From IMG/VR virus record IMGVR_UViG_2778261457_000004: a DNA stretch of 16,924 nt; one strand, given 5' to 3'. Both the position numbers and the translations under genes were made by a program. Under the pieces are notes generated by a model that did no database searches, had not been told where the DNA came from, and worked only from the letters and a program-made list of their open reading frames with translations. Origin of the DNA: a virus (Duplodnaviria; Heunggongvirae; Uroviricota; Caudoviricetes). The number at the start of each line of letters is the position of its first letter. The first letter of the stretch is position 1. Below are positions 10,348 to 14,614 of this stretch, one piece after another.

Positions 10348-10457
10348 GTCATTTGTTACCGGTCAGTCTACACATTTCAGATGCTGCGTTAAAAAACCCA
10401 AGTACTTCAAGTAGCACATCGTCATCAACACCCAGCCCCAAGATACGGTGATAAAAT

Positions 10458-11492
10458 TCAAGCCTTAAGAGGCTTTGTGTATGTTCGTGTAATCCATCCA
10501 GTAATAAACTCGTCCCCTGATTTAACCTGCACGAAAAGCCATTGGCGATCTTTTTTATCTAAAACAGCCACTATAGTATTTTTGCCAATGCATTCAATCA
10601 CCTCACTATTTATAGAAGGACTGACGTGTAATCTTACGTTCTCACCAGTTATAAAACGAAAACCATTGAGATCTTCCCAACTAATTTCTTTGTTTTCTTT
10701 AATTAATTGTTGTTTTGATATTGGTTTATCCTCAAACAGAGATATAAAATATGATTCTGCCTTGTGTATTCCCAGCAAGGTTTTCTCTTTTCCGTAATCA
10801 ATAAAAGCACCAAACACAACTTGAGAAAATATAACCATTAGTAACCATTGCAGTGGATAAGGAAGCTCTTTAAATGAATCAACAAACTTTGAGCTAGGTT
10901 TATTTAATCCTTTGTTTTGAACATTACTTTTGGTGTGTGATGTTTCAGTAGCACCTTCAGCATAAGCCTGCGCAATAGATGAAATCCCCTGCTCTATTAT
11001 TTGATGTAATGAAGCATTTCTTGTTCTAGCATAGTGATCTAGTACTTTCTTTATGTCTTGGCTTACATCTATTTTATAACTTGCACTTTGTTGTAATTCT
11101 TTAAGTATCGCTTGCATGTTATTTAAACCAGCTTGCTTATTAAGCACCTCAAGCTGTTTTCGTAATGGCATAGCTATTTCGGCCTGTTTCCTTAGCATTT
11201 GAATATATCTATTTGCGTCATGAGGGAAAAGAGCCTGAGGATGTTTCTGTAAAATCGCGATATGTTCACGATACTTGCTGCCTATTCCAGCCAAGTTCGG
11301 CATACTAGCCAATTGTTTTCGAAGAGAGTTACTAATTACAGCTTGTCTATTCAATCTTGTCATATTTTGAAAAGAATGTTTTTCTATTCCTAATTGTTTT
11401 TGCAAGATCACTACGTGATCTTTGTATGATGGAATGAGCGCTGGCTGTTTATACAGTAACTTCAACTCATTAGAATTAGTAATTTTTGTCAT
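10458..11492 (-). CDS. Bitopic membrane protein with cytoplasmic tandem-repeat region and C-terminal SH3b-like domain, 344 aa
   Basis: AT-rich ORF. ATG at 11490-11492 preferred; the ORF track's TTG at 11525 would add 11 codons. TATAAT-like sequence directly upstream. Internal imperfect repeats (HVVILQKQL…LRKQLASMPNLAGI / HIAILQKHP…LRKQAEIAMPLRKQLEVLNKQAGL). One predicted TM helix (LQWLLMVIFSQVVFGAFIDYG). C-terminal ~75 aa has the SH3b pattern (…VRLHVSPSINSEVIECIGKNTIVAVLDKKDRQWLFVQVKSGDEFITGWITRTY). Confidence 0.7.
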   Translation of the reverse strand: MTKITNSNELKLLYKQPALIPSYKDHVVILQKQLGIEKHSFQNMTRLNRQAVISNSLRKQLASMPNLAGIGSKYREHIAILQKHPQALFPHDANRYIQMLRKQAEIAMPLRKQLEVLNKQAGLNNMQAILKELQQSASYKIDVSQDIKKVLDHYARTRNASLHQIIEQGISSIAQAYAEGATETSHTKSNVQNKGLNKPSSKFVDSFKELPYPLQWLLMVIFSQVVFGAFIDYGKEKTLLGIHKAESYFISLFEDKPISKQQLIKENKEISWEDLNGFRFITGENVRLHVSPSINSEVIECIGKNTIVAVLDKKDRQWLFVQVKSGDEFITGWITRTYTKPLKA

Positions 11493-11566
11493 ATTATTCC
11501 ATTTATATAATAGAATATTACGCAACCAATGTTTTATTGATTGCGTTAATCTTTAACACAGAAAGA

Positions 11567-12043
11567 TCATTTGCCTCGTTTAATACATCCATCCATTTTG
11601 GCTTGTTGATACAACTTACTTAGCCCAGAAAGAGGGAATGTAGCAATTTTTTCATTATCAACATAAGCATCAATCATATTAGCATTTGAATCTGCTGCAT
11701 CTTGCCAAAAGGCATACCACCAAGAATCTCCAACCATTGATCCAAGATTGCTAAAAGGATATTGCTCACCATCTATAGTTAATACTATTTTATTCTTGTC
11801 AGCATTATACTCTTTTTTATTATTCGACGAACTTAGCAACAAGCCTAAACTACCTGCACTATCTGGTGAACCATACATGAATCCCATATCACATAAAAAA
11901 CTTATCTTATCACCATTATGATTATGGATTGTATATTCTCTCCCCCCTCTCTCTTCAATTACATTCCATTGTAGAGGATCTATTTTTGCAAATGTTCCTG
12001 CTGAAACTAACGATACAAATAATAAAAACCATCTCATATTCAT
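11567..12043 (-). CDS. Secreted/periplasmic protein with Sec signal peptide, 158 aa
   Basis: AT-rich ORF; N-terminus MNMRWFLLFVSLVSAGTFA|KID is a typical signal peptide with an AxA-like cleavage site; two Cys residues; no recognisable family. Confidence 0.7.
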   Translation of the reverse strand: MNMRWFLLFVSLVSAGTFAKIDPLQWNVIEERGGREYTIHNHNGDKISFLCDMGFMYGSPDSAGSLGLLLSSSNNKKEYNADKNKIVLTIDGEQYPFSNLGSMVGDSWWYAFWQDAADSNANMIDAYVDNEKIATFPLSGLSKLYQQAKMDGCIKRGK

Positions 12044-12065
12044 TCTTTTCGCTTCTTATCTGTAA

Positions 12066-12416
12066 TTATTCTGCAATATCATTTGCCCATTGCACGGCAG
12101 CAAAATGAGTACCCAAACCACTCAGGAAAGCAATTACCCCCAAAACAATACTTGCTGCTGTTGATTCAAACAAAGTACCAATACTATAGCCAATAGCTCC
12201 CCATACTAAGCTAAATACAATCATCAATGGTATTGCCAGAAATTTTATTCTTAAACTAAAAATCAGTCCAAGAAAAGAACCGCCAAAGGCCCACCATGAT
12301 TTAGACATTAAACCTATCAGTATTGACAGAATTCCTATTTCAATAAAGAGAATATTAGATTGCTCTTCATTGAATTTCGCATTTGTTACACCTTTACGAA
12401 CATGTTCAGATGACAT
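12066..12416 (-). CDS. Small polytopic inner-membrane protein (about 4 TM helices), 116 aa
   Basis: AT-rich ORF with ATG at 12414-12416 and AGGAG about 11 nt upstream. Four hydrophobic segments (ILFIEIGILSILIGLM, WWAFGGSFLGLIFSL, IPLMIVFSLVWGAIGYSIG, ASIVLGVIAFLSGLG). Confidence 0.65.
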   Translation of the reverse strand: MSSEHVRKGVTNAKFNEEQSNILFIEIGILSILIGLMSKSWWAFGGSFLGLIFSLRIKFLAIPLMIVFSLVWGAIGYSIGTLFESTAASIVLGVIAFLSGLGTHFAAVQWANDIAE

Positions 12417-12562
12417 GATTAACTATCTCCTGCCACAGATAAAACGCCTTAAAATAACATTTTGTAGCATAAAGTTTCACCATGCAATGGTCAAAATCTT
12501 TGACCCATATCAATTAAACTCATACATTTTAGTTACCAGAGAAATAATTCACATGGTTGCAA

Positions 12563-12579
12563 GTTGCTCTAATTATTTT
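12563..12579 (+). promoter_or_regulatory. P1 C1-repressor-type operator (Op51-like) upstream of the immunity region
   Basis: GTTGCTCTAATTATTTT matches the asymmetric 17-bp C1 operator consensus ATTGCTCTAATAAATTT (recalled) at 14 of 17 positions. It shares the exact 10-bp core TTGCTCTAAT with two further sites in the window. Confidence 0.5.
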
Positions 12580-12651
12580 ATTTTTTTAGCTTCATATGCT
12601 ACATTAACTTGCTTTAGTGCTAATGCATTTTCGGTTTATCCTAAACAGGCA

Positions 12652-12728
12652 TCTTAGTAAAACGGATGCCGGGATTGGAACCCCGGATAATGCAAAAGGC
12701 GACACAGACGCCAAAAGCGTCTTTTTTT
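12652..12728 (+). ncRNA. Candidate c4-like antisense repressor RNA (boundaries approximate)
   Basis: Stem-loop CCGGG-ATTGGAAC-CCCGG (12669-12686) followed by a terminator-like hairpin. Segment 12669-12700 is an imperfect inverted copy of 12810-12841, which lies just upstream of the icd-like ribosome binding site. Position between a C1-type operator and an icd-ant pair mirrors the P1/P7 immI organisation. Confidence 0.35.
12707..12728 (+). terminator. Intrinsic terminator-like hairpin with U-run
   Basis: GACGC (12707-12711), loop CAAAA, GCGTC (12717-12721), then TTTTTTT (12722-12728) on the plus strand. Confidence 0.5.
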
Positions 12729-12809
12729 GTGTCATGCCATCGCACAGCCATACGTAGCACATAGCTCCGAGATCAATGGTAGTGCTGGCTGGGCTGCCGA
12801 AAGGCAGGC

Positions 12810-12871
12810 CGGTTCCCTTTTGCGCCGGTAGTTCCAACCCAGTCAGTGCTACCGCCATTGAGATTGGAACC
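12810..12871 (+). promoter_or_regulatory. Antisense target / leader region of the icd-ant operon
   Basis: CCTTTTGC (12816-12823), CCGG and GTTCCAA (12831-12837) are complementary to GCAAAAGG, CCGG and TTGGAAC in 12669-12700. GATTGGAACC is directly repeated at 12672-12681 and 12862-12871. GCTACCGC (12848-12855) and GCGGTAGC (12876-12883) form an 8-bp inverted repeat. Confidence 0.4.
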
Positions 12872-12913
12872 TCACGCGGTAGCTCCTTAAATTAGCAAAA
12901 GGAGGCTGCCATT

Positions 12914-13135
12914 GTGGCTACTATCCCTACCCCTACTCATCCTGAATTTATCTGGCGCTTTTACTCCTGCCAAAAACAACACTATCACTTCGTTATCGCA
13001 GCAACTGAAGACGAAGCACGCTCTCAATTGCCTGATGGCCCCTGCATTTTTACTGCCCGTTTTTCTACTAACTCGCGCAATTCACTTAGTTACTGGAACC
13101 TCCCCTTCTCTGCCGACGTTCAGGGGGTTTTATGA
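12914..13135 (+). CDS. icd: Small icd-like protein, 73 aa, translationally coupled to the antirepressor
   Basis: GTG start at 12914 eight nt after a GGAGG SD. The stop TGA overlaps the antirepressor ATG (ATGA at 13132-13135). Architecture matches P1 icd; the 73-aa length of P1 Icd is from memory and sequence homology is not verified. Confidence 0.5.
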   Translation: MATIPTPTHPEFIWRFYSCQKQHYHFVIAATEDEARSQLPDGPCIFTARFSTNSRNSLSYWNLPFSADVQGVL

Positions 13136-14520
13136 AAAAACCTCTCGTCACCCGTAATGAAATTGCCGAAGCGTTCGCTTTGCATACAACCTGTATGCCG
13201 ACACGGGAGATCCCCGGCGCAATTGCCAACTATTTCATGATAACCAGGCGTTTTTATACCCGAACAGATAAGGCTGTGATCAACAGGCTACTGATAGCCG
13301 AGATCAGGGATTATTTGATTGAACAAGGACGTCTACGTTACGCAACAGTGGCAGCAGAAATGAGAAAGGAGGCACATAGAATGACCGGTAATAATTTGAA
13401 TGTTGAAAAACCAGCACCTGTTGCTTCAGCTACGCCATCACCAGCTGTGAATGTTATCTCCAACACTGGAGACACAATCGACAGCCAGACACTGTTAAAG
13501 ATGGTCAATGAAGCGCGTAAGTTATGTGGGGAACCAGCGGTTCGGAACAACAAATTCATCGAAAAAATACTCGACGAATTAGAAGGTGAGGACGGTTACA
13601 CAAAAAGTGCAACCGTGCCACCAGGTGGCGGTACGCCTATGGTTGTCATAACCATGACCTACAAACAAGCCCTGCGAGTTGCCGCGCGCGAGTCAAAAGC
13701 GGTCCGCCGTTCGCTACAAACCATGATTCAGGCATTGGAACCTATAAATGTTGAAAATCAGCCTGATGAAATTCCCGTTCTGGAATGGCAGGGAGTACGC
13801 GTCGTGACAACCGAGACTCTTGCTAGAGGGTATGACACTACACCTATTCGTATTCAGCAGAACTACAATCGCAACGAAGAACGATTTGTAGAGGGTAAAC
13901 ACTTCTTTAAAATCAAAGGAGATGAGATAAAAAGTTTGCGACTATCTTTTAGCGAGTTGCAAATTTCCCCCAAGACCAGATCCTTAATACTCTGGACCGA
14001 ACGCGGAGCGGCACGCATGTCTAAGATCGTAGACACAGAGCAAGCGTGGGCATTCTTTGAAAAACTGGAAGACAGCTACTTCCGGCAAAAAGAACAGCAA
14101 CCGGTCACAATCCCCCAAACATTACCAGAAGCCTTGCGCCTGGCCGCCGAGTTGGCAGAACAGAAAATGCAGTTGGAACAACAGCTGGTGGCCGCAGCCC
14201 CTAAAGTCGATTTTGCCGACCGGGTATCAGTGGCTAATGGAATCCTGATCGGGAACTTTGCAAAGGTCGTTGGACTTAAGCAAAACGCCCTTTTCTCATG
14301 GTTGCGCCAGAATGGCATTCTCATGGCTTTTGGAGCGCGCAAAAACGTACCGCGCCAACAGTACATCAACGCCGGGTATTTCACGGTGAAAGAAGTGGTG
14401 CTGGATGATGAAAATGGCTACCAGATACGGCTGACGCCCCAATTAACGGGTAAAGGCCAGCAGTGGTTAACTCGCAAGCTACTTGATGCTGGTTTGTTAA
14501 AACCAGTAGCAATAGGTTAA
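13132..14520 (+). CDS. ant: Phage antirepressor (Ant) with C-terminal KilAC/AntC domain, 462 aa; possible second product from an internal in-frame start
   Basis: ATG at 13132 with AGGGGG SD. Middle region resembles antirepressor ORF6N/AntA-type domains (…WQGVRVVTTETLARGYDTTPIRIQQNYNRNEERFVEGKHFFKI…LILWTERGAARMSKI…). The C-terminus (…LPEALRLAAELAEQ…APKVDFADRV…GYFTVKEVVLDDENGYQIRLTPQLTGKGQQWL…) is the KilAC-type antirepressor domain. An internal in-frame ATG at 13381 follows a strong AAGGAGG SD. Confidence 0.85.
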   Translation: MKKPLVTRNEIAEAFALHTTCMPTREIPGAIANYFMITRRFYTRTDKAVINRLLIAEIRDYLIEQGRLRYATVAAEMRKEAHRMTGNNLNVEKPAPVASATPSPAVNVISNTGDTIDSQTLLKMVNEARKLCGEPAVRNNKFIEKILDELEGEDGYTKSATVPPGGGTPMVVITMTYKQALRVAARESKAVRRSLQTMIQALEPINVENQPDEIPVLEWQGVRVVTTETLARGYDTTPIRIQQNYNRNEERFVEGKHFFKIKGDEIKSLRLSFSELQISPKTRSLILWTERGAARMSKIVDTEQAWAFFEKLEDSYFRQKEQQPVTIPQTLPEALRLAAELAEQKMQLEQQLVAAAPKVDFADRVSVANGILIGNFAKVVGLKQNALFSWLRQNGILMAFGARKNVPRQQYINAGYFTVKEVVLDDENGYQIRLTPQLTGKGQQWLTRKLLDAGLLKPVAIG

Positions 14521-14597: not shown

Positions 14598-14614
14598 TTT
14601 GCTCTAATAAATTT
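14598..14614 (+). promoter_or_regulatory. P1 C1-repressor-type operator (Op53-like) upstream of kilA-repL
   Basis: TTTGCTCTAATAAATTT matches the recalled C1 operator consensus ATTGCTCTAATAAATTT at 16 of 17 positions, about 70 bp upstream of the kilA-like start. An 8-bp inverted repeat AATCACCA…TGGTGATT lies at 14633-14656. Confidence 0.6.

Follow-up and report, generated by a model that had tools for sequence, protein, structure and literature searches.

The window, that is, the whole stretch of 16,924 nucleotides analysed here, carries sit, pmgB, tub, pmgC, three ORFs of non-P1 type, a cassette of structured RNAs, icd, ant, kilA and repL in this order. The GTG start codon of icd at 12914 is preceded by the Shine-Dalgarno (SD) sequence AAGGAGG at 12899-12905, and from residue 8 onward the product shares 94% identity with P1 Icd. 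The stop codon of icd overlaps the start codon of ant in the sequence ATGA at 13132-13135, and Ant shares 84-85% identity with P1 Ant1 on either side of an inserted ORF6N domain. Ahead of the RNAs, the sequence GTTGCTCTAATTATTTT matches the consensus ATTGCTCTAATAAATTT of the C1-repressor operator at 14 of 17 positions and aligns with the annotated Oc4 of P1. A second operator-like site is found at 14598-14614, before kilA, with 16 matches out of 17 (one mismatch). The hexamer TATCCT is aligned column for column with the annotated -10 sequence TATAGT of P1 (L001, 3219-3224) and lies 7 nt ahead of the point where the isrK match begins, the -35 sequence of this putative promoter being weak. The gene content matches that of a coupled icd-ant operon, which would be controlled by c4 behind a C1-controlled promoter. 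The features are listed in Table 1.

Table 1. Predicted features of the RNA cassette and the downstream genes (positions in the window)
Feature	Position	Strand	Basis or remark
C1-repressor operator-like site	12563-12579	+	equivalent of P1 Oc4/Op51
-10 hexamer TATCCT, likely constitutive promoter	12637-12642	+	equivalent of P1 P1c4/P51b, by homology
IsrK-like leader RNA: a1/b1 element (two hairpins and linker) and intrinsic terminator	12649-12727	+	Rfam isrK
a1 box TTGGAAC	12675-12681	+	8-nt loop of hairpin 12670-12685; exact complement of a'
b1 box GCAAAAGG	12692-12699	+	in linker; exact complement of b'
Rho-independent terminator, AGACGC-CAAAA-GCGTCT then T7	12706-12727	+	terminator scan
c4 antisense RNA, predicted mature form	12778-12856	+	ends from alignment to the annotated 77-nt P1 c4
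b' recognition element CCUUUUGC	12816-12823	+	loop of c4 hairpin 2
a' recognition element GUUCCAA	12831-12837	+	single-stranded joint of c4
a2 target box TTGGAAC	12864-12870	+	loop of hairpin 12859-12874; exact complement of a'
Third element GCGGTAGC	12876-12883	+	complements 3' strand of c4 closing stem (12848-12855)
b2 target box GCAAAAGG	12895-12902	+	exact complement of b'; overlaps icd SD
icd, GTG start, 73 aa	12914-13135	+	P1 Icd homology; NCBIfam phage_ICD_like, 51.5 bits
ant, antirepressor, 462 aa	13132-14520	+	Pfam ANT/KilAC and ORF6N domains

Two adjoining matches to Rfam covariance models are found on the plus strand, isrK upstream and C4 downstream. The isrK model (RF01394) is matched over its full length (positions 1-77) by 12649-12727 with 58.5 bits (cut-off 50), and the C4 model (RF01695), likewise over its full length (1-87), by 12772-12859 with 76.7 bits (cut-off 45). 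The P1/P7 system is represented in Rfam by C4, by c4-a1b1 (RF03163) and by the clan CL00128. The c4-a1b1 model, which was built on P1-like sequences and gives 51 bits for P1 itself, scores 18.1 bits at 12636-12689 in the window, below its cut-off of 46.7. In P1, Gifsy-1 and Klebsiella phage 020009, the c4-a1b1 match overlaps the isrK match. Because of this overlap elsewhere, and because the position and the a1 hairpin correspond, the element of the window is homologous to c4-a1b1 in position and function, but too diverged for RF03163. The leader is predicted to fold into three hairpins, the last of which is the intrinsic terminator; the T-run of this terminator is invariant in all 16 aligned loci, P1 included. 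It sits where the P1 record annotates 'putative a1/b1 target sites'. As expected of an isrK member in a locus of the Gifsy-1 type, it lies upstream of a complementary c4 RNA and an antirepressor gene, and the upstream second copy of the targets that accompanies members of the C4 family is present as a1 (12675-81) and b1 (12692-99). With the C4 match, the part order of P1 and the homology of Icd and Ant, the stretch 12563-13135 is very probably the immI RNA immunity cassette of a P1-like phage-plasmid, and the preliminary description of this DNA was right in placing it in the c4-icd-ant system of P1/P7 type.

The minimum-energy fold of the predicted mature c4 (-46.6 kcal/mol, z = -5.3) is the same as the Rfam structure, in which a 17-bp closing stem surrounds two hairpins; the loop of the second hairpin carries b', and a' lies in a single-stranded joint. 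In the alignment of 12 loci, the closing stem contains 8 compensatory pairs with 100% of cells paired, and all three helices of c4 are 100% paired with 13 compensatory pairs. The CCA (12855-57) after the 17-bp stem is a tRNA-like feature. P1 c4 was reportedly recognized as an RNA by Citron and Schuster in 1990 and 1992, and Hartmann and co-workers are said to have described its processing by RNase P in 1995. By analogy with P1, the c4 RNA of the window would be cut from a longer precursor by RNase P and would repress ant in trans.

The a2 and b2 boxes are placed as the annotated a2 and b2 of P1. The cost of opening the structure is at most 1.4 kcal/mol for each of a' (0.01), b' (0.97), a1 (0.01), b1 and a2. 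For b2, part of which is hidden in a local hairpin covering the SD, the cost is 6.4 kcal/mol, and thus a model of simple occlusion may be incomplete. The helix that could be formed between 12848-12855 in c4 and the third element at 12876-12883 has 8 pairs, 4 of them changed on both sides, with 95.8% of cells paired. The third element pairs with the 3' strand of c4 in an alternative fold, and is a part of the SD-covering hairpin at the energy minimum.

The segments 12669-12700 (CCGGGATTGGAACCCCGGATAATGCAAAAGGC) and 12810-12841 (CGGTTCCCTTTTGCGCCGGTAGTTCCAACCCA) are complementary in three blocks, as had been noted in the preliminary description: TTGGAAC at 12675-81 against GTTCCAA at 12831-37 (7 nt), CCGG against CCGG (4 nt), and GCAAAAGG at 12692-99 against CCTTTTGC at 12816-23 (8 nt). 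The direct repeat GATTGGAACC, at 12673 and again at 12862 close to the SD, is also present, and a second direct repeat had been missed: GCAAAAGG recurs at 12895-12902, on the SD. In the 16.9-kb window, GCAAAAGG occurs on the plus strand only at 12692 and 12895, and its complement only at 12816 and 912. From the complementarity, the upstream RNA (12652-12728) had been taken as the c4-like repressor, with loops pairing just upstream of the ribosome binding site of icd. The complementarity is real and can form a helix in cis, and the upstream element has the folded structure and the terminator of a small RNA; its homologue in Gifsy-1 acts in trans. Nevertheless, this assignment of roles is contradicted by the sequence and is very improbable. 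It is the downstream element that is recognized by the C4 model, whereas the upstream one matches isrK and is the a1/b1 element. The complemented segment 12810-12841, which had been regarded as leader sequence just upstream of the ribosome binding site, holds the b' and a' elements of c4 itself and lies 73-104 nt ahead of the start of icd. The loops of the upstream element carry the very sequences of the boxes at 12864-70 and 12895-902 instead of their complements, so that a1/b1 can pair only with c4 and not with the ribosome binding region of icd. Furthermore, the homologous RNA of Gifsy-1 activates, rather than represses, antirepressor translation. The alignment to the c4 region of P1, suggested in the preliminary description, brings the window into register with P1 part by part in the same order.

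The conservation of the complementary boxes was assessed in 19 loci: those of P1, P7, D6 (two), RCS47, JL22, SJ46, 673R5 (two), phiP27 and others, the rest being from five Stx/lambdoid phages, Klebsiella 020009, Yersinia YpM_41, an Acinetobacter phage, Gifsy-1 and the window. A C4 match is found in every locus collected, and directly upstream of it isrK or c4-a1b1 reaches the gathering score except in P1, locus 2 of 673R5 and the Acinetobacter phage; in P1 itself, c4-a1b1 is detected only via an E-value search. The a' and b' elements were taken by fixed position in the C4 match, and their complements were sought upstream and downstream in the same locus. Such complements are present on both sides of c4 within its own locus. 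The boxes are diverse, with 9 types of a and 12 types of b in 16 combinations among 17 loci. In these 17 loci, 60 of the 68 own sites are exact and the inexact ones pair via G-U wobbles, whereas permutation of c4 among loci gives 7.5 exact sites on average and never more than 30 (0/100000). Pairs were counted in a 12-locus alignment of the loci outside the P1 group, since the P1 group is misaligned in the loops and boxes; this group was assessed instead by position-based exact matching. Changes on both sides were found in 6 of the 7 pairs of a1:a' (98.8% of cells paired), 6 of the 8 pairs of b1:b' (89%), 5 of the 7 pairs of a':a2 and 6 of the 8 pairs of b':b2. When the 3' partners were slid by 1-3 columns as a control, 33-52% of cells were paired in the two structures tested. 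The three copies of each box co-vary across 17-19 phage loci.

Whether the complementarity is better than that of shuffled controls, a question raised in the preliminary description, is answered differently by two measures. Exact boxes in the proper order were found in 0 of 20000 dinucleotide shuffles for each flank, the expected joint chance of both boxes being about 3e-6 per flank, whereas whole-sequence RNAduplex energies between c4 and either flank, in which intramolecular structure is ignored, were no better than those of shuffles (z = -1.4 and -1.2). Exact-match and accessibility tests were used instead of RNAduplex because of this blindness to intramolecular structure. The duplex energies are what would be expected if the repeats and complements were a product of chance or functionless remnants of duplication. 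The shuffle counts of the exact boxes, the three-way co-variation in 17-19 loci and the scores of both elements above the Rfam gathering thresholds leave such an origin with a negligible probability, and it was rejected on the basis of the shuffle counts and the permutation test (0/100000).

The c4 region has also been read as a coding sequence. In the records of plasmids identical to the window in this part, PGAP gives a CDS for an 'ash family protein' at the same place (12776-12895), and a translated upstream ORF might alternatively control icd. The 39-codon ORF (translation of 12776-12892) matches Pfam Phage_ASH (PF10554) with 33 bits (cut-off 26). In Gifsy-1, 'orf45' has been detected with a tag, and its translation is needed for antirepressor expression (Hershko-Shalev et al., PMC4825925). 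However, the corresponding ORF has 8, 14, 28, 31, 39, 41 or 45 codons, or is fused in frame downstream, among 17 loci, and nucleotide changes in the c4 region preserve the base pairs of the RNA. The ORF has no match in NCBIfam, and c4 of P1 is annotated as an RNA. In the window, the ORF ends 19 nt before the start of icd without overlap, unlike in the anrP locus of Gifsy-1, which is without icd and where the ORF across c4 overlaps the start of the antirepressor gene. A coding role for this region is quite unlikely, and the protein-coding reading was rejected because the length and frame of the ORF are not conserved while the changes keep base pairs.

The GenBank record of P1 gives Oc4, P51a/b, a1, b1, c4, a2, b2, icd and ant1/2, and the order and spacing of the parts in the window are the same. 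A terminator-like hairpin likewise lies between b1 and c4 in P1 and P7, where the c4 fold, the lengths of the recognition elements (7 and 8 nt) and their positions in the fold are all shared with the window. The genomic position between pmgC and kilA-repL is also shared with P1. On the other hand, the backbone of the RNA cassette is not of P1 type. Homology to P1 at the nucleotide level is missing between 10358 and 12940 and comes back 27 nt into icd, and P1 is absent from the blastn matches of the window cassette. Between the terminator and c4 the window has about 21 nt more than P1, Ant has the extra ORF6N domain, and three other ORFs take the place of the sim genes. The recognition sequences had been suspected to differ from those of P1 and P7, and both boxes do: the a box is TTGGAAC in the window, TTGACAG in P1 and TTAGCAG in P7, and the b box is GCAAAAGG, GTTAGTGA and GATTGTGA, respectively.

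A second c4 locus of D6-like prophages has been noted (PMC6799933). The second c4-icd-antirepressor locus of D6, RCS47 and JL22 is 92-95% identical to the RNA cassette of the window in nucleotide sequence, with the same backbone, JL22 and D6 being the 95%-identical relatives. Its a box, TTGAGAC, differs from TTGGAAC of the window at two positions, and the difference is coordinated in all three copies. The b box in the second locus of D6 and JL22 is that of the window (GCAAAAGG), and that of RCS47 is also different (GTCAAAGG). In D6, RCS47 and JL22, the cassette constitutes an extra locus next to ref or pacB, whereas in the window it occupies the canonical immI position and is fused to icd-ant of P1 type. 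Since the cassette is close to the second locus of D6, JL22 and RCS47 and the homology to P1 comes back within icd, the window is a mosaic of an RNA cassette of D6-locus-2 type and protein genes of P1 type at the canonical immI position.

The arrangement in the Salmonella prophage Gifsy-1, the type locus of IsrK, is as in the window: isrK, an overlapping c4-a1b1 match, C4, a2/b2 with the SD, and the antirepressor gene, with the boxes TTGGCGT and ATCACCG. Termination in Gifsy-1 makes the short IsrK, the read-through mRNA is translationally inactive, IsrK activates antirepressor translation in trans, and a processed RNA, STnc1160, is found downstream of IsrK (PMC4825925). That paper does not call the downstream RNA c4, although the C4 match falls on STnc1160 and 'orf45'. 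Counted from the start of IsrK, a1 spans U26-U32 and a' spans A158-A164. The compensating mutations G28A/C162U and G31A/C159U (Hershko-Shalev et al., PMC4825925) therefore alter two a1:a' pairs, G28:C162 and G31:C159, both of which are included in the minimum-energy fold of Gifsy-1 nt 1-180. The complementarity noticed in the window has thus been tested already in a homologue. As the c4 and a1/b1 of P1 and the IsrK and STnc1160 of Salmonella represent one RNA architecture, two literatures are joined, and the mutational data from Gifsy-1 become applicable to P1-like elements. Accumulation of an IsrK-type RNA, Hfq binding and activation in trans are known for Gifsy-1 only, and may apply to the window by analogy.

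When a1:a' and b1:b' are forced in the read-through RNA of the window, one interrupted helix is formed, which is the same as the 7+4+8 blocks of the preliminary description. This fold has -110.2 kcal/mol, as against -113.0 kcal/mol for the c4-folded minimum. The c4 fold is thus lower by 2.8 kcal/mol in the window, whereas the cis-paired fold is the predicted minimum in Gifsy-1. Given this small gap and the precedent of the compensatory mutations in Gifsy-1, the proposed pairing of the upstream stem-loop with 12810-12841 in the same transcript is energetically plausible. RNAcofold, applied to c4 together with either the leader or the IsrK-like RNA as the co-folding test proposed in the preliminary description, gave just 3-bp end contacts, since a nested model cannot represent loop-loop pairing.

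In P1, c4 is reportedly processed, binds a2/b2 and blocks icd, as credited to Citron and Schuster, Biere and co-workers, and Hartmann and co-workers. Rho-dependent polarity also reportedly operates in P1. By homology with these systems, transcription in the window would start near 12649, downstream of the C1-operator-like site, and the first ~79 nt would make the IsrK-like leader, with a1 in a hairpin loop, b1 in the linker and the intrinsic terminator at the end. Transcripts reading through the terminator would contain c4 (~12778-12856), which would be excised by RNase P, by analogy with P1. Mature c4 would offer a' and b', and their pairing with a2/b2 in the leader of icd would block translation of icd. 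As ant is translationally coupled to icd, this block would also stop Ant synthesis, by which the prophage would be kept repressed. Besides coupling, polarity presumably prevents Ant synthesis, as judged from the GenBank annotation of P1 and reviews. The upstream a1/b1 is a target mimic rather than the regulator: in cis, it could zip with a'/b' into the alternative fold without c4, and the terminated short RNA could pair in trans with c4 or with the read-through RNA, like IsrK in Gifsy-1. From the case of Gifsy-1, we infer that the a1/b1 leader counteracts c4 by competing for a'/b'. The family matches, the fold with its exposed a' and b', the complementarity to a1/b1 and a2/b2, the co-variation and the gene context are direct results of the analysis, and the processing of c4, repression by it, and the role of a1/b1 as a decoy or switch are all suggested here by homology.

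The role of a1/b1 is the point on which homologous systems disagree, being an activator RNA (IsrK) in Gifsy-1 and, in P4, a seqA where termination is triggered by the antisense RNA. The immunity system of the satellite phage P4 (seqA, CI RNA and seqC) and the secondary immunity of phage N15 (CA RNA) can be likened by description to the window in having a processed small RNA between upstream and downstream copies of its target. The cA region of N15 shows a weak blastn match to a related cassette. The IsrK authors name P4 seqA as structurally homologous and compare their system with seqA/CI, and the outcome in P4 is premature transcription termination, not a translational block (PMC4825925). The a1/b1 element of the window might accordingly be mainly autoregulatory in a P4-like fashion, c4 bound to nascent a1/b1 raising termination at 12706-12727 and thereby limiting synthesis of c4 and icd-ant. 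The terminator follows b1 directly and is conserved in all loci, and the IsrK authors, pointing to the P4 seqA homologue, raise such a possibility (PMC4825925). In Gifsy-1, however, a constitutively expressed c4-like RNA left the IsrK-dependent growth arrest unreduced, and the arrest was stronger (PMC4825925). A P4-like termination role is rather unlikely and nonetheless a live alternative, decoy and termination not being separable by sequence alone.

Returning to competition for a'/b', a more extended version is put forward tentatively, as a fair possibility that falls short of being the probable one. In P1-type phage-plasmids, the a1/b1 sites, long listed as 'putative', may be active as both an IsrK-type terminated RNA and a cis switch, which titrates or unfolds c4 through two nearly isoenergetic folds of the read-through RNA, stabilised by a third co-varying helix (the 3' strand of c4 with 12876-83), and thereby sets the threshold for the antirepressor. 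The a and b boxes may reassort as a two-part immunity code, and the window may be a recombinant of an a box of phiP27/Klebsiella type, a b box of D6-locus-2 type and icd-ant of P1 type.

Neither the architecture nor the two RNA families are new, and the a1/b1 motif was described by Weinberg et al. (2010; PMC2864571). What is specific to the element of the window is an uncharacterised combination of a and b at the canonical immI site: the a box TTGGAAC, which is also that of phiP27 and Klebsiella 020009, is joined to the b box GCAAAAGG, which is also that of locus 2 of D6 and JL22, and this combination was found in no other phage sampled. As the boxes are distinct from those of P1, P7 and D6, a separate immI specificity is plausible, in line with the suggestion of the preliminary description, and it also fits the co-variation of the boxes. 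The boxes predict which co-resident P1-like elements the plasmid prophage would keep silent via immI, and this prediction is relevant to how the many P1-like plasmids of E. coli coexist. The value of the present analysis is mainly in annotation, as it puts right which RNA regulates and which sequences are targets. In the records of identical plasmids the RNAs are unannotated, and the gene for c4 RNA is labelled there 'ash family protein'. In PLSDB, the 276-bp cassette is found with 100% identity in two E. coli plasmids and with at least 99% identity in 19 plasmids.

The 'ash family protein', as the 39-codon ORF lying across c4 is labelled in identical plasmids, is the c4 antisense RNA read as protein. 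Its match to the Pfam family Phage_ASH (33 bits) exceeds the cut-off of 26. Across the 17 loci compared, the ORF over c4 ranges from 8 to 45 codons or is fused in frame to the antirepressor, and thus several phage records carry a CDS over the RNA. The 'orf45' described for the Salmonella prophage Gifsy-1 (PMC4825925) is the counterpart of the ORF in the window.

Features of the window discussed in this part
Feature	Position	Strand	Remark
Three ORFs replacing sim genes	within 10358-12940	-	355 aa (SH3 domain), 158 aa and 116 aa
39-codon ORF	12776-12895	+	ATG at the 5' end of c4
GCGGTAGC	12876-12883		between a2 and b2; complement of the 3' strand of the c4 closing stem (12848-12855)
icd Shine-Dalgarno sequence, AAGGAGG	12899-12905		within the hairpin region 12878-12910
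TTTGCTCTAATAAATTT	14598-14614	+	one-base difference from the P1 C1 operator consensus; precedes kilA

The pairing of GCGGTAGC with the c4 3' strand is retained in most loci, with changes on both sides at four of the eight pairs and 95.8% of the cells paired. In the predicted structures this helix is seen only in an alternative fold in which the upstream boxes a1/b1 are paired to a'/b' of c4, and it may constitute a third element of a conformational switch. The segment could alternatively be a simple mirror of the c4 5' strand. In the minimum-energy fold, its bases belong to the hairpin that covers the icd Shine-Dalgarno sequence. There, an anti-Shine-Dalgarno sequence, CUCCUU (12883-12888), is predicted to sequester the Shine-Dalgarno sequence through a hairpin of 11 bp, also when c4 is absent, and the computed cost of opening b2 is 6.4 kcal/mol. 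The situation is similar to that in Gifsy-1, where the read-through mRNA has been called 'translationally inactive' (PMC4825925).

Nucleotide homology with P1 is interrupted from 10358 to 12940 and is regained 27 nt into icd. Within this interval, simA, simB and simC of P1 give way to three minus-strand ORFs, and the immI RNA cassette of P1 is likewise replaced. Downstream, the antirepressor is 462 aa long, whereas P1 Ant1 has 347 aa; relative to the latter, an ORF6N domain is inserted at 13716-14109 (residues about 212-290), between the P1-like N-terminal part and the KilAC part. The C1-operator-like site before kilA is the equivalent of OrepL/Op53 of P1.

A C4 match (58 bits) is also found at 595-681 of a contig of Acinetobacter phage MD-2021a (locus L013), with a P1-type a box and with a1/b1 upstream; a2 pairs only via a G-U wobble. 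It is flanked by rutF-like and TetR-family genes, and no antirepressor is annotated within the stretch of the contig examined around the match. In several phages of the P1-like and D6-like kinds, namely D6 (loci L002/L011), RCS47 (L003), JL22 (L019) and 673R5 (L009/L017), the complete c4 cassette is present twice, with differing a/b boxes; one cassette is at the canonical immI site, and the other adjoins ref or pacB. How the two boxes are combined varies from phage to phage: in locus 1 of D6, for example, the a box is that of P1 but the b box is not, and SJ46 joins the a box of P7 to the b box of D6.
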